A DNA stretch of 64,000 nucleotides from Alphaproteobacteria bacterium (lineage in GTDB: Bacteria > Pseudomonadota > Alphaproteobacteria > UBA8366). The notes under the pieces were generated by a model that worked only from the letters and a program-made list of their open reading frames with translations, was not told the DNA's origin and did no database searches. Every line of letters begins with the position of its first letter. Position 1 is the first letter of the stretch. Shown here piece by piece: positions 245-56,673 of the stretch. Location of the stretch: NCBI GenBank assembly GCA_041557595.1, contig JBFFGE010000002.1, positions 9,047 through 73,046 on the forward strand, written 5' to 3'. Position numbers and translations under genes: made by a program.

Positions 245-1530
245 ACCATTTCGAGTACCGCGCGGGCGCCCTGCACGCCGAAGGCGTGTCGCTGGCCGAC
301 ATTGCCGAGGCGGTGGGCACGCCGTTCTATTGCTATTCGACGGCTACGCTGGAGCGGCACTACCGCGTCTTGACGCAGGCGCTGGAGGGGCTGGACACCA
401 TGATCTGCTATTCGGTGAAGGCCAATTCGAACCTCGCCGTGATCCGGACCCTGGCAGAATTGGGGGCGGGCGCCGATGTGGTGTCGGGCGGCGAATTGCT
501 GCGGGCGCTGGCCGCCGGCATCCCGCCGGAGCGGATCGTCTTTTCCGGCGTCGGCAAGACCGAAGAAGAGCTCGCCCTGGCGCTCGACCGGCAGATTCAT
601 CAGGTAAACGTCGAATCGGTGCCCGAGCTCGAATCCCTGTCGGCGCTGGCCGTCGCGCGCAAGGCGACGATGGCGGTCGCGGTGCGGGTCAATCCCGATG
701 TCGATGCGGAAACCCACGACAAGATTGCGACCGGCCGCAGCGAAGACAAATTCGGGGTCGATATCGAGGACGCGGCGGCGGTGTTCGCCCGCGCCGCCGA
801 ATTGCCGGGCGTCACGCCGGTGTCCGTCGCCGTGCATATCGGCTCGCAACTGACCGATTTGCGGCCCTTCCGGGCGGCCTTCGAGCGGGTCGCCGATTTG
901 GTGGGGGTCTTGCGGGACGCCGGACACGACATCCGCCGGCTGGACCTCGGCGGCGGGCTCGGCATTCCGTATCACGGGGAGGTGCCGCCCTCGCCGGACG
1001 AATATGCTTCGATGGTGCGTGAAACGCTGGGCGATTTGGACTGTACGCTGATGTTCGAGCCCGGACGGATGCTGGTCGGCAATGCGGGCCTGCTGGTCAG
1101 CCGGGTGATCTATGTGAAACAGGGCCGGACGCGGCGCTTCGTCGTGATCGACGCGGCAATGAACGACCTGATCCGGCCGACGCTGTACGATGCGTATCAT
1201 GGTGTGCTGCCGGTTCGCCAGGCGGGCGAGAACGCGGCCCTCGAGCCCGCGGATATCGTCGGGCCGGTGTGCGAGACCGGCGATACCTTCGCCCAGAAGC
1301 GGCCGCTGCCGCCGCTTGTCACGGGAGATTTATTGGCATTTTCCTCCGCGGGAGCGTACGGTGCGGTAATGGCTTCAAGCTATAACTCGCGTCTGCTGGT
1401 ACCGGAGGTGTTGGTGAACGGAGAGACCTATAGCGTCGTGCGCGCACGACCGACCTACGAAGACCTCTTGGCGCTGGACAGCTTCGCTGCCTGGCAGGAC
1501 GAGGCTGCGATTCGACGGCGGCGGGCCTGA
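241..1530 (+). CDS. lysA: diaminopimelate decarboxylase
   Basis: The 429-aa ORF has the typical LysA N-terminus (GTPFYCYS) and an Orn/DAP/Arg decarboxylase fold-type III pattern throughout. Confidence 0.95.
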   Translation: MNHFEYRAGALHAEGVSLADIAEAVGTPFYCYSTATLERHYRVLTQALEGLDTMICYSVKANSNLAVIRTLAELGAGADVVSGGELLRALAAGIPPERIVFSGVGKTEEELALALDRQIHQVNVESVPELESLSALAVARKATMAVAVRVNPDVDAETHDKIATGRSEDKFGVDIEDAAAVFARAAELPGVTPVSVAVHIGSQLTDLRPFRAAFERVADLVGVLRDAGHDIRRLDLGGGLGIPYHGEVPPSPDEYASMVRETLGDLDCTLMFEPGRMLVGNAGLLVSRVIYVKQGRTRRFVVIDAAMNDLIRPTLYDAYHGVLPVRQAGENAALEPADIVGPVCETGDTFAQKRPLPPLVTGDLLAFSSAGAYGAVMASSYNSRLLVPEVLVNGETYSVVRARPTYEDLLALDSFAAWQDEAAIRRRRA

Positions 1531-4094
1531 TGGGCTGGCGCGTCCCAAAACGCAAGAAATCCGGCAGGACCGTTGCAGTCTGGCGGATCGCAAGTGCCTG
1601 GCTGGCGCTTGCCTGGGAACGGGTATGGCCCGCCCTGTGGCCGGCGGTGGGCGCCGCCGGCGCGTATATGCTGCTGGCGCTGACCGATATACTGCCGCTG
1701 ATTGCCGGATGGCTGCACGCACTTATTCTGGCGGCGTTCGCCGCTGCCGTTCTGGGCCTCGGCTGGCGGCAGCTGCGTCGTCTACGGCTGCCGGACCGCG
1801 GCGCGACCTTGCGGCGCCTGGAAAGGGCCAACGATCTGCGGCATCGGCCCCTGGACGCGGTTTCCGATCGATTGGAGGCCGGCGCCGCCAACGACGAGAC
1901 CCGCAGGCTGTGGGAACTGCATCAGGAACGCATGCGGGCGACCGTATCCCGCCTCCGCATCGGCTGGCCCTCGCCGGGTCTCATCCGACGCGATCCGTTT
2001 GCGTTGCGGATCGTGCTCGGCATTGCGCTTACGGTTGGGTTGATCGTCGCCGACGATCCCATCGACCGGGTTGCGCGGGCCTTCACGCCCGATCTGACAC
2101 GTGTGGCCGCGAGCAGCCCTGCCAAACTGGATGCCTGGATCACACCGCCGGAATATACCCGCGCCGCACCGATCTTCCTGGCGTCCGGCGGTGGCGACGG
2201 CGCGGTCCCGGCCGAGCAGACGACAATCACGATACCGTTCGGCAGCATGCTGGTGGCGCGCGTCAGCGGCGGCGCCGGGACGCCGGAACTCACGGGCGAC
2301 GGCAGCAGCGTTGGATTCGAAACGCAGGTCCCCGGCAGTTTTCAACTCGAACATAAATTGCTCGTAGATGGCGATTTGTCGATCCGGCAGGGTCGGCGCA
2401 CGCTCGGCCGCTGGAAGGTTGCGGTAACGCCGGACAATCCGCCGGCGGTGACATTTTCCCGCCCGCCGTCGCGGACGCGACGCAATGCGATGCGCCTCGA
2501 ATTCGAAGCGACCGACGACTACGGCGTCGAAAAAGTGATCGCCCGGATCAGCCGGTCGGGCGCCGTTCCGGCGGAATCGGCGCTGGCGAAGTTCGAACCG
2601 ATCGAGATTGATCTGCCCTTGCCGGGTCTGCAGCTCCGGAAGATCAAATCGACGAGCTATAACGATCTGACCGCCCATCCCTGGGCCGGATTGCCGGTCA
2701 ATCTGGTGCTGACCGCGAGCGACGCCGCCGGTCAGACCGGCAGTAGCAAGACGATCCAGATGGTGTTGCCGGAACGCGCCTTCACGCATCCGGTCGCGCG
2801 GGCGATTATCGGACACCGTCGGCAACTGGCGCTCTATCCGGAACAGAACCGCAACCGCGTGGGGGCCCAACTCGAACAGCTGGCCTGGGAGTATGAGGAA
2901 TATAACGGGGATACGGTGGTGTTCCTCGGCCTGTCCACGGTCGCCCGCCGGCTCGAAAACGAAAAACTGGATACCCCGCAGAAATTGCTCGGCGTGCTCC
3001 AGCTTCTCTGGAATGTGGCGTTGCGCATCGAAGATGGCAATTTGTCGCTGAGCGAACGCGCCTTGCGCGACGTGCAACAGGCGCTGCAGGACGCGCTGTC
3101 GAAGAAGACGACGGATGCGGAAATCGAGCGATTGCTGAAGGAATTCGAACGCGCCCTCGGCGAATATCTCAACGCGCTGGAAGAAAAGATGCGCTCGATG
3201 CCGCAGCAGCGGGCGGAGAATATGCCGCCGGACGCGCGTGTCCAAATGCTGCGCCGCGAGGATATCAAAAAGATGCTCGATCGAATTCGCGAATTGTCAC
3301 GCAGCGGTCAGCGGGACGCCGCGCGGCAAATGCTGTCGCAGCTCCGGAATATGCTGGAGAACCTGCGCACGCGCCAAATGGCGCGCCCCGGCGGAACGCA
3401 GCGCCGTGCGATGAAAATGCTCAACGAATTGCAGGACATCATCCGACAGCAGCAAGGTTTGCTCGACCGCACCTTCAAGGAAGCGCAGCGTCGGGGTCAG
3501 ATGCGCGGTTCGACACCGAACAATCCGATGCTCCGCCTGCCGCCGAACTTTCTCCCGCCCGGCGCCGGCCGCCCGCCGGAGGACGGCAAGCAATCGCCGC
3601 CTCCGATGGCGAAGGAATCGGAATCCCAGGAAAGCCTGCGCCGTCGACTCGGGGAAATTATGCGGCAATTGGGAGAAATGACGAAATCGATACCGCGCGC
3701 GCTTGGCCGTGCGGAACGCTCTATGAACGAGTCCACCAAGCAGTTGGGGACCGGACAGGCGGGACAGGCCGTGCCGCCGCAGACGCGCGCCATCGATCAG
3801 TTGCAACAGGGCGCCCGCTCGGCGACCGAACAGTTGATGCGTCAGCTGGGGCGCGGGCAACGGCCGGGCGAAGGCAGCGAACCGTTTGGCCATTCGCGCC
3901 GGTCACAGGATCCGTTCGGCCGCGATGTCGACAAGACCGGGCGCAGCGCCAATACCAACGATGTCAAAATTCCGGATGAAGACAGCGTCCAGGGGTCGCG
4001 CCGCATCCGCGACGAGTTGCGCCGCCGTGCCGGCGAGTATCAGCGTCCGAAGCTCGAACGCGACTATATTGATCGTTTGCTGAAACAGTTTTAG
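1530..4094 (+). CDS. TIGR02302/DUF4175 family membrane protein
   Basis: The 854-aa ORF has an N-terminal multi-TM segment and a long low-complexity Q/R/E-rich C-terminus. It sits in the canonical alphaproteobacterial position just after lysA, with an ATGA overlap. Confidence 0.8.
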   Translation: MGWRVPKRKKSGRTVAVWRIASAWLALAWERVWPALWPAVGAAGAYMLLALTDILPLIAGWLHALILAAFAAAVLGLGWRQLRRLRLPDRGATLRRLERANDLRHRPLDAVSDRLEAGAANDETRRLWELHQERMRATVSRLRIGWPSPGLIRRDPFALRIVLGIALTVGLIVADDPIDRVARAFTPDLTRVAASSPAKLDAWITPPEYTRAAPIFLASGGGDGAVPAEQTTITIPFGSMLVARVSGGAGTPELTGDGSSVGFETQVPGSFQLEHKLLVDGDLSIRQGRRTLGRWKVAVTPDNPPAVTFSRPPSRTRRNAMRLEFEATDDYGVEKVIARISRSGAVPAESALAKFEPIEIDLPLPGLQLRKIKSTSYNDLTAHPWAGLPVNLVLTASDAAGQTGSSKTIQMVLPERAFTHPVARAIIGHRRQLALYPEQNRNRVGAQLEQLAWEYEEYNGDTVVFLGLSTVARRLENEKLDTPQKLLGVLQLLWNVALRIEDGNLSLSERALRDVQQALQDALSKKTTDAEIERLLKEFERALGEYLNALEEKMRSMPQQRAENMPPDARVQMLRREDIKKMLDRIRELSRSGQRDAARQMLSQLRNMLENLRTRQMARPGGTQRRAMKMLNELQDIIRQQQGLLDRTFKEAQRRGQMRGSTPNNPMLRLPPNFLPPGAGRPPEDGKQSPPPMAKESESQESLRRRLGEIMRQLGEMTKSIPRALGRAERSMNESTKQLGTGQAGQAVPPQTRAIDQLQQGARSATEQLMRQLGRGQRPGEGSEPFGHSRRSQDPFGRDVDKTGRSANTNDVKIPDEDSVQGSRRIRDELRRRAGEYQRPKLERDYIDRLLKQF

Positions 4095-4197
4095 AGCGAA
4101 CCCTAAGCGAACCGAAACGGTTCGCGACGGCGTATTTGCGTAAAGACCAAGAGATAGACCATTTTATATGAGTCAATTTAGACAAGAAATGGTCTAG
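4092..4197 (+). repeat. intergenic repeat family 1, copy A (about 105 nt, two conserved hairpins)
   Basis: This copy aligns by eye over about 105 nt with the reverse complements of 28762-28866 and 39276-39381. It contains GCGAACCG-AAA-CGGTTCGC and AGACCATTT...AAATGGTCT. Its first three nt are the TAG stop of the upstream gene. Confidence 0.85.
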
Positions 4198-4220
4198 CCT
4201 GCGCCGTCCCCCTGGAGAGG

Positions 4221-5453
4221 CTATTGATGCCGCTGTATTACCGGCGCCTTGGGCATTGCGTCGTCCGGCAGCGGCTTGTTTGCGATCCCCGTTTCGCCCG
4301 GGCGGGTGAAGGTGATATCGAGCTTTTGCGCGGTGCCCGGCGGATTGCGAAATTCCGTCTTGTATCCGACCAATTCGCCGGGTGCGATTTTTGTCTGGTC
4401 CGCGCGGAACGTCCAGACATGCAACTCCGAACCATCCTTGCCGAGCAACGCGCCGCGCATCAGCGGCAGTGAAAGCGGCCGGTTGGAGGTGTTGCGGATC
4501 TCGCCTTCGACGACCAGAACCTCGTCATTTCCCTTGATCTTCTTCTTCGGTTTGGGCTCGATAATCTGCAACCCGGTGCCGAGGATATCGGGCTGCAATC
4601 CAACCATCGCATAGACCGAGTTCGACCAGGGCAACCAAGTGACGATGGTGTTCTGGAACATGAAGGCGGCGGCGCCAAGGGCGCCGACAAAGAGAATCAA
4701 GGCGAAGAGCGATAGGGTCGCCGCGCGGCCGCTATTGCGGCGCGGGGGCGGCGCGGTGTTTCGGGTGCCCAGAGCGTCCGGCGATGCGATGGGCGGCGGC
4801 GGGAATCCATCCATGGCGGCATCCGCCGACGGCGCCGATATCTGTGCCTCGGCCATGGACGGCGGCGGCATTCCGACCGGCGGCGGATCCGCCAGCGCCT
4901 GCGCGATCGCGTCCGTTTCGTCGGTAGCGCCGGGGGCCGGCTGCTCGGTGTCAGCCGCCGGGTCCTGGGCCAATTCGGGAAACGGTTCCGCCGGCATTTC
5001 GGGCGGCGTTCCGGATGCAGCAAACTCCGCGGCGATATTTCGGCCGCGCGCGGGAGGATCGGCCTCCACGGCCGCGTCGGGGGCGAACGGCGGCGCCGGA
5101 TCGGCGGCGAGGGGCGCGGGATCCGAGTGGAACGGCGGATCCTCCGGCTGTTCGGGTTCGGGCGTCGGGGCGGCTGCGACCATCGGCTCGGCGGGCGGCG
5201 GCGCCGCATCGAATTCAGGCATCGCGGGTGGCGCAGGCGGCGGTTCGGCGGCGAATGGCGGCGGCGGGATTTCCGGTTCGGCCGGCGGCGGCGCCTGTTC
5301 CTGGACGGGAAGGTCGGCGTCGGTCGCCGCGCCGTCCGGCTTGGCAAGCCATTGATGGCTGCATTTGCTGCACCTGACGGTGCGGCCGTCGGCGCCAAGC
5401 GCGTTCGGGTCTACATTGAAGCTGGCTTCGCAGCCCGGGCAAGTAATAATCAT
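4221..5453 (-). CDS. MJ0042-type zinc-ribbon protein with Pro-rich linker, one TM and a DUF3426-like C-terminus
   Basis: The N-terminus MIITCPGCEASFNV...RCSKCSHQW is a CPxC...CxxC zinc ribbon. It is followed by a long PA-rich region, a TM helix and a C-terminal beta-rich domain. It is divergent from ftsE, as in many alphaproteobacteria. Confidence 0.8.
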   Translation of the reverse strand: MIITCPGCEASFNVDPNALGADGRTVRCSKCSHQWLAKPDGAATDADLPVQEQAPPPAEPEIPPPPFAAEPPPAPPAMPEFDAAPPPAEPMVAAAPTPEPEQPEDPPFHSDPAPLAADPAPPFAPDAAVEADPPARGRNIAAEFAASGTPPEMPAEPFPELAQDPAADTEQPAPGATDETDAIAQALADPPPVGMPPPSMAEAQISAPSADAAMDGFPPPPIASPDALGTRNTAPPPRRNSGRAATLSLFALILFVGALGAAAFMFQNTIVTWLPWSNSVYAMVGLQPDILGTGLQIIEPKPKKKIKGNDEVLVVEGEIRNTSNRPLSLPLMRGALLGKDGSELHVWTFRADQTKIAPGELVGYKTEFRNPPGTAQKLDITFTRPGETGIANKPLPDDAMPKAPVIQRHQ

Positions 5454-25178: not shown

Positions 25179-26276
25179 ATGGCGGTATCGAGGGTCGGAA
25201 TCGTGGGTGCAGGCACGATGGGGTCCGGCATTGCGACCAATATCGCGCAGCATGGATTTCCGGTGCGTCTGGTCGACACCGGCCAGGAGATGATCGACGG
25301 GGCGATCGCGAAGGCACGGGCGTTTTTCGCCAAGCAGAAGGAGCGCGGCCGGATGACCGCCGACGAGGTGGCGGTTGCCGCCGATGCCTTGTCGGGCGGC
25401 ACGGAGCTGGCGGCGCTCGCCGATTGCGATCTTGTGATCGAGGCGGTGTTCGAACGGATCGACATCAAGGCGGAGCTCTACGAAAAGCTCAACGGCATAC
25501 TGCCCGGCGAATCGATTCTTGCCACCAACACGAGTTGTCTCCGGGTCGGCGCGCTGAGCGAACCGGTCGATCGGCCGGAACGCTTTCTCGGCATGCACTA
25601 TTTCAACCCGCCGGCGATCAATCCGATCGTCGAGGTGGTGCGCGGCGAGGCGACGGCGCCCGCCACGGTCGAGGCGGCGTTGGCGTTTTGCGCCGCCACG
25701 GGCAAAAAATCGGTCAGCTGCCGCGACAGCAGCGGGTTCGCGCTGAACCGGTTTTTCTGTCCGTATGTAAACGAGGCCGTCCGGATCTTCGATGACGGGA
25801 TGGGGACGCCGTTCGAGATCGATCGGGTGGCCAGCGATGTATTCGGCGCGGCGGCCGGTCCGTTTGTCGTCATCAACTTGGTGGGATCGCAGGTGTTGCT
25901 GCATTCGCAGGATAATTTGCGCCAGCTTGGCGACTTCTATACGCCGGCGCCGTCGGTCGAGCGGGTCGGCCGGGAGCAGGGGCGCTGGGAAATCGGCGAT
26001 CCGTCACCGCCGGACGAGGTCCGGGATGCGGCGATCGCGGAACGGCTGATGGGCGCCACCTTCTTGCCCGTCCTGCAGGAACTGGACGAGGATGTGGCGT
26101 CGCCGGGCGATATCGACATGGGGGCGAAACTTGCGTTGAAATTCGGGAAGCCGCCCTGCGCGGTGATGGATACGCTCGGCGCCGGGGAAGTGGCGCGGTT
26201 GATCGAGGCGCCGTGCCGGCGCTATGGCGTGACGCCGCCGAAGAGTTTGAAACGGGTCGGCCGGTTGGCGGCGTAG
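25179..26276 (+). CDS. 3-hydroxyacyl-CoA dehydrogenase family protein
   Basis: The N-terminus has the Rossmann motif VGIVGAGTMGSGIA and the HFFNP-like motif (MHYFNPP). An AGGAGG RBS lies upstream. Confidence 0.88.
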   Translation: MAVSRVGIVGAGTMGSGIATNIAQHGFPVRLVDTGQEMIDGAIAKARAFFAKQKERGRMTADEVAVAADALSGGTELAALADCDLVIEAVFERIDIKAELYEKLNGILPGESILATNTSCLRVGALSEPVDRPERFLGMHYFNPPAINPIVEVVRGEATAPATVEAALAFCAATGKKSVSCRDSSGFALNRFFCPYVNEAVRIFDDGMGTPFEIDRVASDVFGAAAGPFVVINLVGSQVLLHSQDNLRQLGDFYTPAPSVERVGREQGRWEIGDPSPPDEVRDAAIAERLMGATFLPVLQELDEDVASPGDIDMGAKLALKFGKPPCAVMDTLGAGEVARLIEAPCRRYGVTPPKSLKRVGRLAA

Positions 26277-26318
26277 AGCAGCTTATGTGCTCCCATTTGG
26301 GCGCACATAAGCTGCTCT
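26275..26318 (+). terminator. perfect 16-bp stem-loop starting inside the TAG stop codon, followed by a T-rich tract
   Basis: AGAGCAGCTTATGTGC (26275-26290) is the exact reverse complement of GCACATAAGCTGCTCT (26303-26318). The loop is tcccatttgggc and the downstream sequence is ATCTTTAT. Confidence 0.65.
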
Positions 26319-26383
26319 ATCTTTATAGAATCGATCAATTTTTTTGCCTTTAATCGATTCCAATTAATTGCAGGTTGATCTAG
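26318..26383 (+). repeat. intergenic repeat family 2, copy D1 (about 65 nt, A/T-rich)
   Basis: This copy is near-identical to 54977-55041 in the same orientation. It has internal inverted arms GAATCGAT/ATCGATTC and GATCAA/TTGATC and ends in GATCTAG. Confidence 0.8.
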
Positions 26384-27174: not shown

Positions 27175-27251
27175 TGGCGCGCCCGGGAGGACTCGAACCC
27201 CCAACCTCCTGATCCGTAGTCAGGCACTCTATCCAATTGAGCTACGGGCGC
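27175..27251 (-). tRNA. tRNA-Arg (anticodon ACG), CCA encoded
   Basis: The cloverleaf was folded by hand from GCGCCCGTAGCTCAATTGGATAGAGTGCCTGACTACGGATCAGGAGGTTGGGGGTTCGAGTCCTCCCGGGCGCGCCA. It has a 7-bp acceptor stem, a TTCGAGT T-loop and the anticodon loop CTACGGA. Confidence 0.93.
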
Positions 27252-27557: not shown

Positions 27558-28730
27558 ATGATTGTACTTCGAAATGTTGGCGTTGTTGTCGCAGGCGGCC
27601 TGATGTTGGCCGCGTGCGGTTCGAGCTTTTGGCCTTCCCTGGGCGGCGGCGACTCGTCCGCGGACAAGAGCAGTGGGGAACGTATCGCCATTCCGCCTTC
27701 CAAGGCGGAGGCGTCGGCGCGGGCGCAAGACGAGCGCGGTTCCGGTCCGATTTCGACCATGCCGGAAGTCGCGGCGAAACCGGTAAACGCCCAACCCAAG
27801 CTGTCGGGCGCGTCGACGGGCACGTTTGTCGGCAAGAAAGTCGATGCGATGCGCGGCGACCTGGGCAAGCTGCAGAAGGCGGTGGCCCGGCTGGACGAAC
27901 GCATGCGGCAGATCCGCGGCGACTCGGCCGGCGCGACGAATCGGTATTACGGTGTCGTCGCGGCGATTGACGCCAAGCTGCAAGCCGGCACGACGCCGGG
28001 CAATCCGGTTCTGGTGCAGCGGTGGAACGAGGCGCAAAAGCAACTCAAGCGCGTCGAGGCCAGCATCTCGCAGATGAACAACCTCTCGAACGATGCAGGA
28101 TCGGAAGCAAGCGTGGCCGGGTATCTGCTGGACAGCGTCCGCGCGACCTACACGCTCAGCGGCGCGGTCGATCAGGATCATGTGGACCTGCGCGCCCTGG
28201 AAGACGAAGTCAATCAATCGGTGGTGGTCATCGATCGCCTGTTGAATGAATTGAGCGACGATCTGAATCGCCAAACCACCTATCTCGCCAATGAGCGGCG
28301 TAACCTGACGGCCATGTCGATCGCCATCAAGAACGGCGAACGGTACGGCGCCAGCCTGGCGAACCGGGCCTTCGCGCAAGCCGAGGTGAAGGCCAGCCTC
28401 GCGGCGCGGACGCGCGGCCCCGACGCCGCGGCGCGGCCGCTTGTGGTCATCCGGTTCGACCGGTCGCGCGTGAACTATGAGCGCGTGCTCTACAATGCGG
28501 TCAGCCGGGCGCTCGAGCGGAAGCCGGGCGCGGCATTCGACATCGTCGCGGTCAGTCCGCGAACCGGATCGGCGGCGCAAGTCGTGTTGAACAGCACCGC
28601 GGCCAAGCGCAATGCGGAGAGCGTGATGCGGACGCTGTCGGAAATGGGGCTGCCGTCCAATCGCGTCAACCTGATCGCATCGTCGATCGGCACCGCGCAG
28701 TCCAACGAAGTGCGCATTTACGTCCGATAG
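27558..28730 (+). CDS. lipoprotein of unknown function (coiled-coil middle, degenerate OmpA-C-like tail)
   Basis: The product MIVLRNVGVVVAGGLMLAACGSS has a lipobox. The central section is heptad-like, and the C-terminus AKRNAESVMRTLSEMGLPSNRV...EVRIYVR resembles OmpA-like domains. Confidence 0.6.
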   Translation: MIVLRNVGVVVAGGLMLAACGSSFWPSLGGGDSSADKSSGERIAIPPSKAEASARAQDERGSGPISTMPEVAAKPVNAQPKLSGASTGTFVGKKVDAMRGDLGKLQKAVARLDERMRQIRGDSAGATNRYYGVVAAIDAKLQAGTTPGNPVLVQRWNEAQKQLKRVEASISQMNNLSNDAGSEASVAGYLLDSVRATYTLSGAVDQDHVDLRALEDEVNQSVVVIDRLLNELSDDLNRQTTYLANERRNLTAMSIAIKNGERYGASLANRAFAQAEVKASLAARTRGPDAAARPLVVIRFDRSRVNYERVLYNAVSRALERKPGAAFDIVAVSPRTGSAAQVVLNSTAAKRNAESVMRTLSEMGLPSNRVNLIASSIGTAQSNEVRIYVR

Positions 28731-28761
28731 AGTTTTGATGCCGGCAGTTGCCGGCGGAAAT

Positions 28762-28866
28762 CAGACCATTTCTTATCTAAATTGGCTCATGTGAAATCGT
28801 CTATCTCTTGGTTCTTGCGCAAATACGTCGTCGCGAACCGTTTCGGTTCGCTCGGGATTTGCTCTA
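28762..28866 (-). repeat. intergenic repeat family 1, copy B
   Basis: The reverse complement aligns with copy A (4092-4197) and copy C. It begins with TAGAGC 11 nt after the panC stop and is co-oriented with panC. Confidence 0.85.
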
Positions 28867-28877
28867 GTGGCGGACTG

Positions 28878-29747
28878 TCAGCTTTTTTCGATCGCGATAT
28901 TATCGATGAGCCGCGTGCCGCCTAGATGCGCGGCGGCAAAGACGCGCGCGCGGGCCTGCGACGGCAACTCGCCGCCGAGCGGCGCCAAGGAGTCCCCGTT
29001 CCGAATTTCAAGATAGTCGACCGGGTCGAAACCCGCGTCGCGCAACGCGGCCAAACCCCGGTCGAGTGCGGCCGCCATATCCGTGCCCTGTCGAACGTTT
29101 TTTGCGACCTCCTGCATGATTTGGTGCAGGCGCGGTGCGACGGCGCGTTGATCCGGTGTGAGATACCCGTTGCGGGAGGATAGGGCGAGGCCATCCGCTT
29201 CGCGCACCGTCGGTACGCCGACGATTTCGGTCGGAATATCCAGGTCGCGCGCCAGCCGCTGAACGACCAGCAATTGCTGGTAGTCCTTCTCGCCGAAATA
29301 GGCGCGGTCGGGCAGCGATTGCAGCAGCAGTTTGCAGACGATGGTCGCGACGCCCTGAAAGAAGTGCGGGCGCACGGCGCCGCAGAGGCCTTCGCTTACG
29401 CCCGCCACGGTGATGCGCGTCGCGAATCCATCGGTGTACATTTCGGGCGCGTCGGGCGCGAAGACGAGATCGGCGCCCAATGCCGACAGTTTTGCAAGAT
29501 CGGCGGTTTCCTCCCGCGGATAGGTTTCGAAATCCTCGGTCGGCCCGAATTGCGTCGGATTGACGAAGATCGTCACGACGGTCCGGCGGCAGTCGGCCAG
29601 GCTCGCCCCGACAAGCGCCAGATGGCCATCGTGCAGCGATCCCATGGTCGGCACCAATCCGATGGATGCGCCCTCGCCGCGCCAGGTGCGGATTTGGTCG
29701 CGGAGCCCGGCGATCGTGCGCACGATCTCGGGCGGGGAGGACGTCAT
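28878..29747 (-). CDS. panC: pantoate--beta-alanine ligase
   Basis: The start was trimmed to MTSSPPEIVRTIAGL. The motifs PTMGSLHDGHLAL and the GEKDYQQ region are typical of PanC. Confidence 0.92.
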   Translation of the reverse strand: MTSSPPEIVRTIAGLRDQIRTWRGEGASIGLVPTMGSLHDGHLALVGASLADCRRTVVTIFVNPTQFGPTEDFETYPREETADLAKLSALGADLVFAPDAPEMYTDGFATRITVAGVSEGLCGAVRPHFFQGVATIVCKLLLQSLPDRAYFGEKDYQQLLVVQRLARDLDIPTEIVGVPTVREADGLALSSRNGYLTPDQRAVAPRLHQIMQEVAKNVRQGTDMAAALDRGLAALRDAGFDPVDYLEIRNGDSLAPLGGELPSQARARVFAAAHLGGTRLIDNIAIEKS

Positions 29748-29752
29748 GGCCG

Positions 29753-30589
29753 CTACTCCGCCGCCGGACGCGACTTCGCGGTGAAGCATTGCTCCGCACC
29801 TGGAAACTTGCGGGCCCGGACGTCTTTGGCATACGCCGCCGCTGCTGCCTGGAGCTGATCGCCGAGGTCGGCGTACCGTTTGACGAATTTGGGTTTGAAT
29901 TTCGAAAACATGCCGACCAGGTCGTCGGTCACGAGGATCTGGCCGTCGCACGTCGGCGACGCGCCAATGCCGATGGTCGGTATTTCGACCTCTTCGGTTA
30001 TCCGCTTCGCCAGCGGCTCCATGACGCCCTCGATCACCAGCGCAAAGGCGCCGGCGTCGGCGATGGCCACCGCGTCCTGCAGGATCTGCTCGGCCTCGTC
30101 GCCGTTGCGACCGTGAACCCGGTAGCCGCCCGCCGCGTTAACGTATTGCGGCAGCAGGCCGACATGGCCAAATACCGGAATGCCGCGCTCGCTGAGAAAC
30201 CGCACGGTCTCGGCCATCTCCGCGCCGCCTTCGAGCTTGATGCCCTGACAGCGGGTTTCCGCCATGATCCGCGCGGCGCTGCGGAACGCCTGTTCCGGGC
30301 TCTCCTGATAGCTGCCGAAGGGCAGGTCGACCATGACGCAGGCATGCGTCGTCGCGCGGGTCACCGCACGGCCATGCGCGATCATCATGTCGAGGGTCAC
30401 CCCGATCGTGCTGTCCATGCCGTAAATCACCATCGCCAGGGAATCGCCGACCAGCAACAGGTCCATATGCGGATCCAGCAGCTGGGCGACCGGCGCGGTA
30501 TAGGCGGTCAGGCATGCCAGGGGTTCCTGGCCTTTTCGGCGGCGAATTTCGGGCACGGTCACCCGGCCCTGACGTTGCTTTTTGGTCAT
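29753..30589 (-). CDS. panB: 3-methyl-2-oxobutanoate hydroxymethyltransferase
   Basis: The 278-aa ORF has the motifs [16 protein letters not shown] and KLEGG. It lies upstream of panC. Confidence 0.92.
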
Positions 30590-36429: not shown

Positions 36430-37338
36430 ATGACCAGCGAAAAGACGCAACTCCGAAAGAACTGGCTCGAACGGGCCGGGATATTGACCGAGGCCCTGCC
36501 CTATATGCGGCGTCATGCGGGCCATACCTTCGTCATCAAGTATGGCGGTCACGCCATGGGGGACGCGGACCTCGCCGCCGTTTTCGCGCGCGACGTCGTG
36601 TTGCTGAAGCAGGTCGGCATCAACCCCGTCGTCGTGCATGGCGGCGGCCCGCAGATCGGCGCGATGCTCGAACGGTTGATGATCAAGAGCGATTTTGTCG
36701 ACGGGCTGCGCGTGACCGATGCGGCGACCGTGGAAATCGTCGAAATGGTGTTGTCCGGCCAGATCAACAAACAGATCGTCGCCAGCATCGCCGATGCCGG
36801 CGGCCGCGCGGTCGGCATTTCCGGCAAGGATGGCGGATTGATCCATGTGCGCAAACTCGAACGGACGGTGCGCGATCCGGATTCCAACATCGAAAAGGTG
36901 GTCGATCTCGGGTTCGTCGGCGATCCCGACCATGTGGATCCGCATATCCTGAACGTATTGCGCGACACCGATATCATCCCGGTGATCGCGCCGCTCGGCG
37001 TCGACGCGGCGGGCCAGACCTTCAACATCAACGCGGACACGGTGGCCGGCGCCATCGCCGCCGCGCTCGGGGCGACGCGGTTGCTCCTGCTCACCGATGT
37101 CGAAGGCGTGCTTGACAAGGACGGCGCGCTGATACCGGAAATGACGGTGCAGGACGCGGCGGCGCGGCGCAAGGACGGCACTCTCACCGGCGGCATGATT
37201 CCCAAGGTGGAGACCTGTGTCGATGCGGTCGACAAGGGCGTCGAAGGGTCGGTCATTCTCGACGGACGGGTACCGCACGCCATTCTGCTGGAACTCTTCA
37301 CGGAGCACGGATCGGGCACCCTGATCCGCGCGGGCTAG
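36430..37338 (+). CDS. argB: acetylglutamate kinase
   Basis: The start was trimmed to MTSEKTQL. The motifs [10 protein letters not shown] and [12 protein letters not shown] are present. Confidence 0.92.
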
Positions 37339-37352
37339 AGCCGGACGACGCC

Positions 37353-38559: not shown

Positions 38560-38593
38560 GATCATAGGGCGCCGCAAATGTGCGCCTATGATC
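38560..38593. terminator. imperfect 12-bp hairpin between convergent genes (possible bidirectional terminator)
   Basis: The arms are GATCATAGGGCGC and GCGCCTATGATC, with one bulged G. The hairpin overlaps the TAG stop of the MlaC-like gene. Confidence 0.35.
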
Positions 38594-39254
38594 CCGGCCG
38601 GTTACCGATCGCCGCTGCTTCAAGGTCGGAAAGACGTGTCTGCAGGTGCAGAAGAAATCCGTCGATACCGCGTTTCTCGATGATCGCGGCAAAATCGGCC
38701 CGCTGAATTATGATCATGCTGACGCCCTCGACGATGACGTCGACGATCCGCGGCCCCGAGGTGAATTGTCGGACGCGCCAGTCGACTTTCAAGGGCTTCG
38801 GCGTCTTCGGTCCGACGATATGGGTGCGCACCAGCACGTCGCTGCGTCCAACCGCCCTGTCGCCAAGCACCCGCACCGATTGATCGGAATACCCGTTCAG
38901 CCGGATCAAATAATATTTGACCAGCCATTCCTCGAAGAGTTTGCCGTATTGCTGCCGCTGATCGGGTGACAGGCGGCTCCAATGCTTGCCCACGACAAAC
39001 CGGCTGATGTGGCCAACCGCGAAGTTTTTGGTCAGCAGCGATTGAAACCGCGTTTCGCGGGCCTCGAAGGATCCTTGCCGGTGGTCCAATACGCGGATGG
39101 CGTCCTGCGCCAGCGCCGTGATGAACAGGGCTGGATCGGTTGTATCGGGTCCGCGGGCGGCGGCGGCGCCGATATGGAAGAGCCCGGCAAGCGCCATCCC
39201 CAGGATGACCGAGGCGACGACGATGCCGAGTGTATTGGAAATTTTCTTTGTCAT
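38586..39254 (-). CDS. MlaC/Ttg2D-family (toluene-tolerance, phospholipid-binding) periplasmic protein
   Basis: The 222-aa ORF has a signal anchor and MlaC-like motifs (FxxxxIxRFVVGKHW, YSDQ, V...V...GV). No mlaDEF genes are adjacent. Confidence 0.7.
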   Translation of the reverse strand: MTKKISNTLGIVVASVILGMALAGLFHIGAAAARGPDTTDPALFITALAQDAIRVLDHRQGSFEARETRFQSLLTKNFAVGHISRFVVGKHWSRLSPDQRQQYGKLFEEWLVKYYLIRLNGYSDQSVRVLGDRAVGRSDVLVRTHIVGPKTPKPLKVDWRVRQFTSGPRIVDVIVEGVSMIIIQRADFAAIIEKRGIDGFLLHLQTRLSDLEAAAIGNRPGS

Positions 39255-39275
39255 TTGAGTTTGCTCCCGGAGATC

Positions 39276-39381
39276 TGGACCATTTTTTGCCTAAGGTGGC
39301 TTATATGAAATGGTCTATCTCTTGGTTTCCTTCGCAAATACGTCGTCGCGAACCGTTTCGGTTCGCTCGGGATTTGCTCTA
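39276..39381 (-). repeat. intergenic repeat family 1, copy C
   Basis: The reverse complement aligns with copies A and B. Its first three nt (TAG) are the cupredoxin stop codon. It ends 22 nt before the start of the MlaC-like gene. Confidence 0.85.
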
Positions 39382-53848: not shown

Positions 53849-53948
53849 GGTGGAAGACTGGACCCACGACCCGAACCTGACTCGTTACGGCTGCTTCCTT
53901 CCGGATCTGACCGGGTTGGCGAGGGACTCGTCCGCAAGCCAGCCTTCC
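53849..53948 (-). ncRNA. ffs: signal recognition particle RNA (4.5S, small bacterial type)
   Basis: The minus strand contains GGTCAGATCCGGAAGGAAGCAGCC, the conserved domain IV motif. The terminal helix pairs GGAAGGCTGG with CCAGTCTTCC. A TATATT -10-like box lies just upstream. The position directly upstream of dnaX is canonical. The ends are approximate. Confidence 0.8.
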
Positions 53949-54959: not shown

Positions 54960-54976
54960 GGCGGTCTAGGGCAGGT

Positions 54977-55041
54977 TATCTTTATAGAATCGATCAACTT
55001 TTCGGCCTTTAATTGATTCCGATTAAGGCAGGTTGATCTAG
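54977..55041 (+). repeat. intergenic repeat family 2, copy D2
   Basis: This copy is near-identical to 26318-26383. It fills the convergent gap between nudC and pheA. Its terminal CTAG supplies the pheA TAG stop (55038-55040). Confidence 0.8.
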
Positions 55042-55898
55042 TCGCCCGAATCCGTGCCGCGATGCGGCGATGCCGGATAGACCCCTAATATCGTGACCTC
55101 GCGGCTGAAAAAGCCGAGTTCTTCCAGCGCCAGACGCACGGATGTCTGGTCCGGGTGGCCTTCGATATCGGCGTAGAACTGTGTCGCGGTGAATTGGCCG
55201 CGCACCATGTAGGATTCGAGTTTGGTCATGTTGACACCGTTCGTGGCGAAGCCGCCAAGCGCCTTGTAGAGCGCCGCCGGCACGTTGCGCACGCGGAAGA
55301 CGAAGGAGGTCACGACGATGCCGTCGTCGGGATCGGGGTCGATCGGATCGCGCGCCATGATGATGAAGCGGGTGGTGTTGTGGTCTTCGTCTTCGATATT
55401 GGTGCGCAGTATTTTGAGATCGTAGATTTCCGCCGCGAGCGTCGATGCGATGGCGGCGAAGGATTTGTCGCGCTTCTCCGACAATTCCTTGGCGGCGCCG
55501 GCGGTGTCCGCGTGGACCACGGGACGGACGCCGAGGTCCCGGATGATGTTTCGGCACTGCGACAGGGCATGAACATGGCTGTGCACGGTCGCCACGTCGT
55601 CCAGGGTCGCGCTTTTGAGGCCCAACAACTGGTGGTTCACCCGCTGGAAGTGCTCGGCGATGATGTGCAGATTGGATCTTGGCAACAGATGATGGATGTC
55701 CGCGACCCGCCCGGCGACCGAATTCTCGATCGGAATCATCGCCAGCCGCGCGGCGCCGTCATGCACCGCGGCGAAGACATCCTCGAACGCATTGCACGGC
55801 AGTGTTTCCATGTCCGGAAAGACGGTGCGGCAGGCCAAATCGGAATACGCGCCCGGAAGGCCTTGAAAGGCAATCAGGTTTTCGGTGTTGGTCGCCAT
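55038..55898 (-). CDS. pheA: prephenate dehydratase
   Basis: The start was trimmed to MATNTENLIAFQGLPGAYS. The PDT domain is followed by an ACT domain with the ESRP-like region. Confidence 0.9.
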   Translation of the reverse strand: MATNTENLIAFQGLPGAYSDLACRTVFPDMETLPCNAFEDVFAAVHDGAARLAMIPIENSVAGRVADIHHLLPRSNLHIIAEHFQRVNHQLLGLKSATLDDVATVHSHVHALSQCRNIIRDLGVRPVVHADTAGAAKELSEKRDKSFAAIASTLAAEIYDLKILRTNIEDEDHNTTRFIIMARDPIDPDPDDGIVVTSFVFRVRNVPAALYKALGGFATNGVNMTKLESYMVRGQFTATQFYADIEGHPDQTSVRLALEELGFFSREVTILGVYPASPHRGTDSGD

Positions 55899-55929
55899 TT
55901 TTGAGGAACCGCGTGTTGGGAATCTCGTT

Positions 55930-56673
55930 TCAGCGCGCGAGAATTTTGCGGGCGCGTTCAAGGTCGGCCGGAGTATCGACACCGAGCGGAACCGTGTCAA
56001 CGAGCGCCACGTCGATCCGCATGCCGGCTTCGAGCGCGCGCAATTGCTCGAGCTTTTCGCGCCTCTCGAGAATGCCGGGCGGCAGCGCGACGAACCGGTC
56101 GAGCGCGGCGCGCCGATAGGCGTAGAGGCCGATATGGTGATACAGCGGCCCGTCGCCGGAGGGCGCCGTGGCGCGGGTGAAATAGAGTGCGCGGCCGCGC
56201 CGTTCCCCCGCCGCCAGGCCGACCACCGCCTTCACCACATTGGGATTGTCTCGTTCTTCCGCGCGGGTGATTTCCGCAGCGATTGTCGCGATATCCACAG
56301 CCTCGTCACCGAGCGGCGCGAGCGCCGCGCGGATCGCCGCCGGCTCGATGGTCGGCAGGTCGCCTTGCACGTTGATCACCGCGTCATGATCGCCCTTCGG
56401 ATCGATCGCGGACAGCGCTGCGTGAATCCGGTCCGACCCGGACGGCAGGTCCGGATCGGTCAAAACCGCCTCGCCGCCGGCTTCGGTGACCGCGTCGACG
56501 ATCGCCTGTTCCGCCGCCGCGATCACGACCCGGCCGATCCCGGCCTCCATGGACCGGCGCCAGACCTGCACGATCATCGGTTGGCCGGCGATGTCGGCCA
56601 GGGGCTTGTCCGGCAAGCGGGTCGAAGCGAGGCGGGCGGGTATCAGGATGATGGGTTGGCGCGGCGTGGGCAT
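55930..56673 (-). CDS. kdsB: 3-deoxy-manno-octulosonate cytidylyltransferase
   Basis: The N-terminus is [17 protein letters not shown] and the product is 247 aa. Confidence 0.92.

Follow-up and report, generated by a model that had tools for sequence, protein, structure and literature searches.

A probable non-autonomous transposable element lying mostly on gene stop codons in an uncultured Rhodospirillaceae-like lineage

Copies of the repeat and their neighbouring genes

We analysed a window of 64,000 nucleotides (the whole stretch of DNA whose first lines stand above), which carries three copies (A, B and C) of a structured repeat, here called family 1, together with a related family 2. The repeats and the genes at their edges are as follows (bit scores are from a covariance model built from family 1).

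1530-4094, plus strand: DUF4175 gene, with its native stop codon TAG (4092-4094) forming the left junction of copy A
4092-4197, plus strand: copy A, 115.8 bits
4092-4093 and 4195-4196, plus strand: presumed duplicated target TA of copy A, with the element body between them at 4094-4194
4097-4102 (GCGAAC) and 4134-4139 (ATTTGC), plus strand: outer stem around the inner hairpin of copy A, with one G.T pair and one mismatch
4107-4125, plus strand: inner hairpin of module 1 of copy A, GCGAACCG-AAA-CGGTTCGC
4155-4196, plus strand: module 2 of copy A, a terminal foldback TAGACCATTT...AAATGGTCTA with GAGTC (GANTC) in its loop
26274-26382, minus strand: full copy of family 2, 26.5 bits with the family 1 model
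28761-28866, minus strand: copy B, 122.6 bits, with a right junction decayed to TGA
28878-29951, minus strand: panC (pantoate-beta-alanine ligase), upstream of copy B, with stop codon TGA at 28878-28880
39275-39381, minus strand: copy C, 112.4 bits
39379-39729, minus strand: cupredoxin/amicyanin-like gene (116 aa), with its stop codon TAG (39379-39381) forming the left junction of copy C
54966-55040, minus strand: short copy of family 2, without the second foldback

The three copies of about 105 nt that a preliminary description of this DNA had claimed are real, with sharp edges and the same two hairpins in each. Averaged over alignment columns, flanks included, they are 83% identical, similarity ends abruptly on both sides, and they score 112–123 bits with the covariance model (rest of the window, at most 27 bits); the RNA fold z-score on the element strand is about −4.4 to −4.9. 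The coordinates given earlier hold for copy A, and the starts of copies B and C (28762 and 39276) move by 1 nt to 28761 and 39275. All three copies begin with TAGAGC and carry the GCGAACCG-AAA-CGGTTCGC hairpin without change, as had been described, and the second hairpin (AGACCATTT...AAATGGTCT) is also present in all three, with one mismatch in copy B and a GGTCC ending in copy C.

The gene calls likewise bear out the stop-codon contexts first described, with copies A and C on a TAG and copy B 11 nt past the panC stop. The C terminus of the DUF4175 protein coincides exactly with the end of 14 homologues; an empty counterpart of the copy A site was not recovered, the best homologue of the DUF4175 C terminus being only 59% identical. 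Copy B lies between convergent reading frames, 11 nt downstream of the panC stop codon, and the converging ORF (27558-28730, plus strand) has no Pfam match. The cupredoxin-like ORF of 116 aa is a real gene, with 54 homologues; copy C separates it from mlaC (38586-39254). In four relatives the site of copy C is empty and the corresponding protein has 124 aa and overlaps the start of mlaC, so that copy C coincides with a truncation by eight residues and a loss of translational coupling to mlaC, indicating that insertions can remodel gene ends. All three copies point the same way as the upstream gene, as noted earlier, but both orientations occur across the family, and the strict co-orientation is an accident of these three copies.

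The full copy of family 2 shares the architecture of family 1 (TAGA start, two foldbacks, AAAGATAGA linker and CTCTA end), and the CTA at its right end is the TAG stop codon of a convergent ORF (25179-26276, plus strand). In the short copy, the leading TAG (55038-55040) is the stop codon of an ORF on the minus strand (55038-56000).

Census, insertion sites and target sequence

A genome scan found family 1 at 11 loci, all of them in a single uncultured Rhodospirillaceae MAG, and a metagenome scan found 117 more loci. With nhmmer, we obtained 158 copies from the MAG and related metagenome contigs, at 151 distinct sites, of which 123 were full and the remainder mostly solo or tandem left modules. 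The element is non-coding and 103–106 nt long, consists of two foldback modules, and loses all similarity exactly at its TAG...CTAG ends. Only L102 (88.7%) and L092 (72%) overlap the window, and the MAG loci share no synteny with it apart from the element itself. Because the copies are approximately 90% identical to each other, there is no covariation within family 1. The loop of hairpin 2 contains GANTC in 85 of 127 copies (67%), as it does in Rhizobium copies; we rejected GANTC as a constrained site, given that it is conserved no better than neighbouring loop positions.

Empty and filled versions of the same site were recovered. In the clean pair, L015 reads CGC TAG GGGGAAGAACGTCATG and L040 has the element between two TAGs; looser pairs are formed by L017 (filled) and L145 (empty), and by L092 (filled) and positions 37330-37345 of the window (empty). 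A single stop codon can be filled in opposite orientations (L072 versus L084; L034 and L114 versus L120), and half copies and tandem arrays occur.

Before the left TA (−1), 62% of copies have C and 26% have T; after the right TA (+1), 77% have G and 17% have A. TA itself is found at both junctions, with T in 72% and A in 91% of copies on the left, and T in 91% and A in 81% on the right. A palindromic CTAG cannot separate a duplication of 2 bp from one of 3 bp or from insertion 3′ of TAG. There is no correlation between the third bases on the two sides, and the left −1 base does not match the terminal C of the element, a pattern of flanking bases that favours a TA duplication, most probably of 2 bp, and disfavours duplications of 3 or 4 bp. 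The element body begins with G on either strand (5′-GAGCAAAT...AAATGGTC-3′), so that a TAG or TAA stop codon hit by the element reads TAG afterwards, whichever way the element lands. The terminal inverted repeat is weak, the two ends sharing only GAsCAwwTC (about 7 of 14 bases, compared by eye).

Position relative to genes and likely origin of the repeat

Junctions were classified in 127 distinct full copies, with genes called as long ORFs with GC3>GC1>GC2; these calls are crude and bring some error into the category counts. A tabulation of orientation and stop codons, as suggested in the preliminary description, gave a family of many copies with a sense bias: the junction is a gene's stop codon in 76% of the 127 copies, with 65 in sense orientation only, 23 antisense only, 8 both and 31 neither. 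With orthologous sites merged, the counts are 59, 23, 8 and 25, respectively (sense versus antisense, p=9e-5). The sense:antisense ratio of approximately 2.6–2.8:1 is similar in convergent (31:12) and tandem (14:5) contexts. A palindromic target does not predict a sense bias of 2.6:1. Convergent spacers are occupied in 64 cases and empty in 67, tandem spacers occupied in 31 and empty in 297, and all 101 divergent (promoter) spacers are empty.

About 85% of the copies in convergent and 83% of those in tandem spacers lie on stop codons, and a simple null gives lower shares (54–69% and 23–45%, respectively). In empty convergent spacers, which supply the convergent null, YTAR occurs 25 times at stops versus 21 times elsewhere, and CTAG 9 versus 4 times; the idea in the preliminary description that targets would gather at stops agrees with this, since 54–69% of the sites in unoccupied convergent spacers are already stop codons. 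Scarce targets plus selection explain most of the stop-codon and spacer pattern.

The repeat is mobile, has a characteristic target sequence, junction anatomy and context bias, and belongs to a wider alphaproteobacterial superfamily. We consider it likely that it is a non-autonomous transposable element (MITE) of approximately 103 bp with two foldback modules, and the insertion polymorphism, the Y-TA-R target and the TA at both ends uphold the MITE with TAG/CTAG preference that had been offered earlier as one of two alternatives. Such an element would presumably be moved by a DDE transposase acting in trans and inserted into Y-TA-R (mostly CTAG), with the central TA most probably duplicated. 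When it landed in the TA of a TAA or TAG stop, the junction next to the gene would again read TAG, whatever the orientation, with no harm to the gene. In a genome of 63% G+C, Y-TA-R is rare and many of its harmless occurrences are stop codons; if insertions into coding sequences and promoter regions are purged by selection, a filter that we infer, the survivors would lie on or just past stops, chiefly between convergent genes.

Among IS5-family transposases, those that duplicate TA at YTAR supply the best candidate for the mobilizing enzyme, with IS630 as the alternative. Left or right ends of IS5-family elements directly abut the terminal CTAG in at least ten copies (L043, L056, L059, L095, L124, L133, L147, L081, L051 and L084), contigs break at such ends in the terminal CTAG of the element, and a complete relative of these adjacent elements, on a Roseovarius plasmid, has TA duplicated in CTAA. 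The two IS5-family ends seen beside copies carry different inverted repeats (GGGTCTGTGGACA and GGTCACATACTCATT), unrelated to those of the element. We found no autonomous partner with ends matching GAGCAAATCC / GACCATTTC and no full insertion sequence in the 0.98 Mb of loci, no complete IS5-type transposase by a motif scan of all loci and the window, and no match in a Pfam search of the transposase fragments beside copies. A 1.4-kb insertion in L096, at the site of the element in L040, was rejected as an autonomous copy, as it encodes an isocitrate/tartrate-dehydrogenase-like protein and no transposase.

The other alternative of the preliminary description was a transcribed 3′-UTR element. A functional module of this kind could stabilize mRNA 3′ ends, terminate transcription weakly, act as a buffer between converging transcripts or yield a small RNA; it would not conflict with a MITE origin, and we think it rather unlikely. 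Selection for an RNA would explain the sense bias of 2.6–2.8:1 relative to the gene whose stop is hit as well as the conserved hairpins, which covary across lineages, although arms bound by a transposase equally predict covarying foldbacks. On the sense strand, G.T mismatches outnumber A.C mismatches (57 versus 26 overall; 29 versus 14 in hairpin 2, which is unbiased by the search pattern), but these counts are of non-independent events. The median length of empty convergent spacers is only 31 nt, and Rfam models of the Brucella sRNAs BASRCI27, BASRCI408 and BASRCI414 contain collinear elements, so that relatives are transcribed; the repeat itself has no Rfam family at or near threshold. The Rfam comparison proposed with this alternative gave no match to the copies at gathering score, and around copy A only chance matches (E>2). 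Nor was an intrinsic terminator found within 4092-4197 on either strand: hairpin 1 is without a U tract, hairpin 2 has a loop of approximately 20 nt, and a scan with loops of 3–8 nt detected no stem plus U tract in or beside copy A. Orthologous sites are freely empty in relatives, and identity to the consensus is alike in sense (0.904), antisense (0.893) and non-stop (0.911) copies; no stronger conservation of sense copies was found. What stands of the 3′-UTR alternative is thus the sense bias and the G.T excess, set against equal conservation of the classes and the lack of an Rfam match and a canonical terminator.

If an HUH/Y1 enzyme moved the element as single-stranded DNA, in the manner of an IS200/IS605-type PATE or of a REP/BIME-like unit with its RAYT, insertion would fall 3′ of TAG without duplication, and the element's own 3′ end would carry CTAG. 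Filled sites of the form TAG|element...CTAG|flank are the formal outcome of such an insertion, and two unlike subterminal hairpins with nearly no terminal inverted repeat, an orientation bias, and a module found solo and in tandem arrays, like BIMEs, would all suit it. We nevertheless regard this route as very improbable: the flanks, with Y ahead of TA and R behind it, show the symmetry of a palindromic duplex target, a single stop codon is taken in both orientations, and copies led by TAA also occur on non-coding strands (L120), where a variable first element base fits better than a stop-codon target. Furthermore, the only transposase fragments seen beside copies are of the DDE IS5 family, and the Brucella relatives are known targets of a TA-duplicating insertion sequence (PMC3163539).

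A further reading goes beyond a MITE with scarce targets. The G-first termini might be adaptive, turning stop codons into a safe harbour, with the surplus on stops due to homing to translation stops or to exaptation of the sense copy as a 3′-UTR RNA module; we hold this to be speculative and doubtful. The surplus in question is 76–85% of copies on stops versus 54–69% in the null, the 2.6:1 sense bias and the absence of copies from 101 divergent spacers, and the setting for exaptation would be genomes with convergent genes only about 30 nt apart. If the reading were true, each TAA hit would become TAG, and the family would push stop usage towards TAG. About 17% of sense copies have TAA at the far junction, and TAG accounts for 31% of the stops in these loci even away from copies (crude gene calls).

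Relatives and known systems

The family, not recognized in the preliminary description, has relatives among the repeats of Rhizobium plasmids and, very probably, in the Bru-RS elements of Brucella. Repeats of approximately 105 nt on Rhizobium, Ensifer and Martelella plasmids match family 1 end to end (55–61 bits, E ~1e-11 to 1e-12; 73–82% identity by blastn) and share its start (TAGAGCA), linker (GCGTGAAAACAAAGAGATAGAGC) and end (GCTCTAG). Their stems have compensatory changes (for example, GACCATTTC/GAAATGGTC to GAGCATTTC/GAAATGCTC), and their inner hairpin is A/T-rich, unlike that of family 1. In an R. anhuiense plasmid copy, the TAG is the annotated stop codon of an ABC-transporter CDS. These plasmid repeats possibly belong to the RIME / Sm-repeat class of rhizobial intergenic mosaic elements.

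For Brucella, PMC2266754, PMC3163539, PMC10800456 and PMC2267715, which cite Halling & Bricker 1994, describe Bru-RS1 and Bru-RS2 as repeated palindromic elements. They are similar in size to family 1 (103 and 105–106 bp; family 1, 103–106 bp), and both groups are intergenic, palindromic, multi-copy and alphaproteobacterial. IS711 favours Bru-RS as insertion sites, duplicating TA at YTAR (PMC2266754, PMC3163539), and family 1 similarly takes IS5-family insertion sequences in its terminal CTAG. The hosts differ, family 1 coming from an uncultured Rhodospirillaceae-like lineage and Bru-RS from Hyphomicrobiales. The consensus of Rfam BASRCI27 (Brucella) holds a collinear element of approximately 107 nt with termini, linker and two foldbacks as in family 1, although the primary sequence of the stems differs; this embedded element is presumably Bru-RS. 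The link is an indirect chain, running from family 1 to the Rhizobium copies (55–61 bits) and from these to BASRCI27 (29 bits, below the gathering score of 59.8). When the stems of family 1, Rhizobium, the BASRCI27 consensus and family 2 are aligned, compensatory changes are seen in 17 of 26 stem pairs, and pairing holds in 94% of cells (26–46% in slid controls). Judged by these comparisons, the element is a distinct new family within the Bru-RS-like group of alphaproteobacterial palindromic repeats. A limited search of the Brucella literature found no mention of a MITE reading or of stop-codon landing for Bru-RS, and no report of stop-codon landing of such elements was found in the MITE literature, surveys included.

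For annotation, these data explain a recurrent structured block of 105 nt past stop codons in this Rhodospirillaceae-like lineage, which would otherwise be annotated wrongly as a terminator, an sRNA or a conserved 3′ UTR. The family offers a well-sampled natural case in which a short palindromic YTAR target, G-first ends and purifying selection would together leave most copies exactly on stops and genes unharmed. Brucella, Rhizobium and Rhodospirillaceae-like repeats are joined in one superfamily, which is also a landing pad for IS5-family insertion sequences and, as such, bears on assembly breaks and strain typing.

Among other known systems, the CIR elements of Caulobacter, reportedly described by Chen & Shapiro in 2003, are said to be intergenic inverted-repeat elements of ~110–125 bp with a CcrM site (GANTC); by description, they resemble family 1, which also has GANTC in its hairpin-2 loop. 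Enterobacterial REP/BIME sequences are, like family 1, modular palindromic units that occur solo or arrayed at the 3′ ends of genes and are used as landing pads by specific insertion sequences (there of the IS1397 type), but REPs measure 20–40 nt and are moved by RAYT (Y1) enzymes with no TA duplication, unlike family 1. The Correia elements of Neisseria, RUP of pneumococcus and ERIC have long, clear terminal inverted repeats, whereas family 1, compared by description, has weakly matching ends and combines two different foldbacks in one mosaic. These MITEs (RUP being IS630-related) have a TA/CTAG target and, like family 1, are non-coding, TA-flanked elements of ~100–150 bp that can fold into hairpins as transcripts and are often located at the 3′ ends of genes (in part, PMC10969869).

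Copies, relatives and superfamily membership

We examined a repeat of about 105 nt, family 1, of which the preliminary description had reported three copies. Their coordinates and gene contexts are as follows.

4092-4197 (+): copy A; its TAG is the stop codon of a DUF4175 gene
28761-28866 (-): copy B; a CTAG site that is not a stop, 11 nt beyond the TGA of panC
39275-39381 (-): copy C; its TAG is the stop codon of a 116-aa ORF

Both the repeat and the contexts given in that description held up: the sequences read as described, the copies align over ~105 nt with abrupt edges on both sides, and all three were recovered by a repeat search of the window (I1-I3, D3 and D7). With all filters off, a family covariance model scored them at 112-123 bits (next window match, 26.5 bits). 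Each copy contains two hairpins (fold z about -4.4 to -4.9 versus shuffles). Copy A occupies a native stop, the encoded protein ending in ...YIDRLLKQF at the same point as in 14 homologues, and the ORF at copy C is a genuine gene of cupredoxin-like type (54 homologues). Copies A-C had no Rfam match at the gathering score in the search that the preliminary description had proposed, and a permissive search around copy A gave chance matches only (E>2). The sole Rfam matches in the window at the gathering score were a tRNA gene (27178-27251(-), 65 bits) and a small SRP RNA (53850-53947(-), 59.5 bits).

A scan of genomes with the invariant hairpin yielded 11 loci of the family, all in one uncultured Rhodospirillaceae MAG (CAYYBI01); 28 other loci were rejected as unrelated chance hairpins. 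A metagenome scan with a 23-mer of the left module gave 117 loci, chiefly from the Ga0224508/Ga0224512 sample series and from another MAG, CAJHYV01. In these 0.98 Mb of loci, nhmmer found 158 copies (123 full length), and after reduction 151 sites and 127 full copies were distinct. The MAG loci have no DNA in common with the window besides the element. Locus L102 overlaps the end of the window at 88.7% identity, L092 overlaps it at 72% and synteny around copy C is kept in the CAYYBI MAG (79% protein identity), indicating that the window comes from a relative of these carrier organisms. Non-full copies were mostly solo left modules, with some tandem arrays.

Left-module arrays or solo modules
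L034 4738-4879
L054 1166-1381
L096 7561-7675
L137 10320-10574
L153 1275-1423

The left module (~55-69 nt) occurs alone or head-to-tail two to four times, an array sometimes closing with a full element; GAG/CAA/TAG stands ahead of AGCAAATCC at array junctions.

Searches of plasmids with blastn returned 59 records, almost all Rhizobium. The family model aligned end-to-end with three Rhizobium plasmid copies (55-61 bits), and an annotated ABC-transporter gene of R. anhuiense uses the leading TAG as its stop. Below threshold, the Rhizobium copies also matched three Rfam models of Brucella sRNAs, BASRCI27, BASRCI408 and BASRCI414, and a collinear ~107-nt element lies inside the BASRCI27 consensus. 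A second repeat, family 2, has unrelated stem sequences but shares the architecture and termini of family 1 (TAGATCAACC...AAAGATAGAGC...GCTCTA).

26274-26382 (-): family 2 copy; the convergent ORF 25179-26276(+) has its TAG stop in the right-end CTA of this copy
54966-55040 (-): short family 2 copy without the second foldback; ORF 55038-56000(-) stops at its leading TAG
L070 9709-9814: further family 2 copy

A four-way alignment of family 1, the Rhizobium copies, the BASRCI27 consensus and family 2 revealed common termini (TA(G/A)A..C...(C/T)TA(G)), three stems and a linker (GC.{2}AAAACAAA...TA(G/A)A(G/C)C), with compensatory changes in 17 of 26 pairs and 94% of cells paired (26-46% with partners slid). 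On this alignment, family 1 and its relatives form one superfamily of mosaic palindromic repeats in Alphaproteobacteria; we infer that Bru-RS1 and Bru-RS2, from Brucella, are very probably its best-known members. A CcrM-type GANTC (GAGTC, GATTC or GACTC; consensus 79-83) lies in the second-foldback loop of 85 of the 127 copies and all three Rhizobium copies (L157-L159), conserved no more highly than neighbouring bases; GATTC also occurs in the terminal-foldback loop of an adjacent IS5-family end.

Target and evidence for insertion

Among 84 copies with TA intact at both ends, the base preceding the left TA was C (62%) or T (26%) and that following the right TA was G (77%) or A (17%), with no constraint further out; the target is thus a palindrome, Y-TA-R. 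The element's final base, ahead of the right TA, is almost always C regardless of the left flank base, and the left triplet's third base (G, sometimes A) shows no correlation with its counterpart in the right triplet. The simplest reading is a 2-bp TA duplication around the body 5'-GAGCAAAT...AAATGGTC-3'; we infer its length, because at palindromic CTAG sites a 2-bp TA duplication, a 3-bp duplication and insertion 3' of TAG look alike. As G comes first on both strands of the body, TA+G remakes TAG at any gene-facing junction: the element would land in the TA of a stop and its G-first end would restore TAG in either orientation.

Orthologous sites differ in occupancy. L015 is empty (...CGC TAG GGGGAAGAACGTC ATG) and its ~91% identical ortholog L040 is filled (...CGC TAG-[element]-TAG GGAAAATACCGTC ATG); L017, L068 and L099 are filled and the orthologous L145 is empty; the site past an argB-like gene is empty in the window and filled in L092 (72% identity); and the copy C site is empty in four relatives. 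Related strains carry opposite orientations at one stop codon (L072 sense, L084 antisense; elsewhere L034 and L114 sense and truncated, L120 antisense), indicating that sites were hit independently. The argB-like gene ends in GGC TAG AGCCGG (window 37335-37345), an unoccupied CTAG stop followed by bases that by chance resemble the start of the element. In L096 the spacer that is filled in L040 and bare in L015 holds 1.4 kb of other DNA (3069-4489), which codes for an isocitrate/tartrate-dehydrogenase-like protein and is preceded by TAA CGCAAACCCAGC with faint likeness to the element start.

At copy C, relatives encode a 124-aa cupredoxin whose TGA overlaps the mlaC ATG, whereas the window lineage encodes 116 aa. 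Deleting copy C and one TA in silico gives ...AAC AAC TAG ATC TCC GGG AGC AAA CTC AAA TGA; seven in-frame codons then lead to the old TGA (116+1+7 = 124), so the junction TAG comes prematurely, ahead of the ancestral stop. A nonsense change may first have produced the CTAG, or the insertion itself may have made the stop; whichever it was, the gene is shortened and uncoupled from mlaC (window 39254-39381 versus L160 3290-3440 and L163 1680-1830: eight codons shorter, ATGA overlap lost). A 9-nt string, GATCTCCGG, flanks copy C on both sides and could be a small duplication predating the insertion.

Coincidence with stop codons

Junctions of full copies by a crude coding test (open frame of >=80 codons with GC3>GC1>GC2): distinct copies; after merging orthologous sites
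Left junction a stop, co-oriented gene (sense only): 65; 59
Right junction a stop, convergent gene (antisense only): 23; 23
Both junctions stops: 8; 8
Neither junction a stop: 31; 25

Sense exceeded antisense (p=9e-5, orthologous sites merged). The far junction of sense copies read TAG (40), TAA (11) or TAC/TAT (2), and the left flank base of antisense copies was C (16), T (6) or A (1). As the far junction records the original stop, both TAG and TAA stops were hit, the latter now being TAG on the gene side.

Spacers and target sites
Convergent: 64 occupied, 67 empty (empty, median gap 31 nt; at stops/elsewhere, YTAR 25/21, CTAG 9/4)
Tandem: 31 occupied, 297 empty (empty; at stops/elsewhere, YTAR 52/172, CTAG 22/27)
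Divergent: 0 occupied, 101 empty

Of the CTAG sites in the non-coding sequence as a whole, just 27% are stops. Target scarcity, with purging of promoter and coding insertions, accounts for most of the coincidence, and to that extent the spacer counts bear out an earlier guess that targets concentrate at stops. Convergent spacers show a surplus beyond target scarcity (~85% observed versus 54-69% expected), and the orientation bias is alike in both contexts (convergent 31:12, tandem 14:5). By crude gene calls, stop usage away from the element (0.98 Mb) is TGA 48%, TAG 31% and TAA 21%, a TAG share that is high for a 63% G+C alphaproteobacterium and makes targets plentiful.

RNA role, mobiliser and known systems

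The sense bias, an excess of G.T over A.C mismatches (29 versus 14 in hairpin 2, the part free of search-pattern bias) and transcription of the Brucella relatives would suit an exapted RNA role for family 1 copies. We consider such a role unlikely: identity to the consensus is equal among sense (0.904), antisense (0.893) and non-stop copies (0.911), sites are freely empty in relatives, an Rfam match is lacking, copy A has no terminator-like site in or beside it, and foldback-arm covariation is equally expected of transposase-bound ends. Family 1 is a real repeat family, best explained as a MITE of the Bru-RS-like superfamily that targets Y-TA-R and whose ends restore stop codons.

In at least 10 loci the terminal CTAG of the element is directly adjoined by an insertion-sequence end, and the contig breaks off 5-180 nt into it; the element doubles as insertion-sequence landing pad and assembly breakpoint.

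IS5-family type 1, right flank GGGTCTGTGGACA...: L043, L056, L059, L095, L124, L133
IS5-family type 2, GGTCACATACTCATT...: L147, L081, L051, L084

The fragments comprise an N terminus (MNMDRFVISDDTWARISGRVPGK...), a second type (MARFDLTDFEWSVIQ) and a C terminus (...GIATRYDKTDTSYAANLNLVAAIIAAR*). The N-terminal piece matches IS5-family transposases annotated on many plasmids of alphaproteobacteria, and the C-terminal piece matches the final 26 positions of NCBIfam transpos_IS5_3. In a complete relative, carried by a Roseovarius plasmid, the inverted repeat is GGGCCTGTGGACA (versus GGGTCTGTGGACA in carrier loci) and TA flanks the element within CTAA. IS5-family elements that follow the repeat's own target rule are thus present in the carrier genomes; as their ends are unlike those of the repeat, these adjacent elements are probably not its mobiliser, and no partner element with ends matching family 1 was found in the 0.98 Mb of loci.

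This type of MITE is already known and family 1 itself is new, its notable point being the end anatomy that allows it to occupy stop codons. IS711, an insertion sequence that duplicates TA at YTAR, inserts preferentially into Bru-RS1 and Bru-RS2 (103 and 105-106 bp, against the ~105-nt family 1 alignment) (PMC2266754, PMC3163539, PMC10800456, PMC2267715). The carrier IS5-family elements stand in the same relationship to family 1 as IS711 does to Bru-RS in Brucella.
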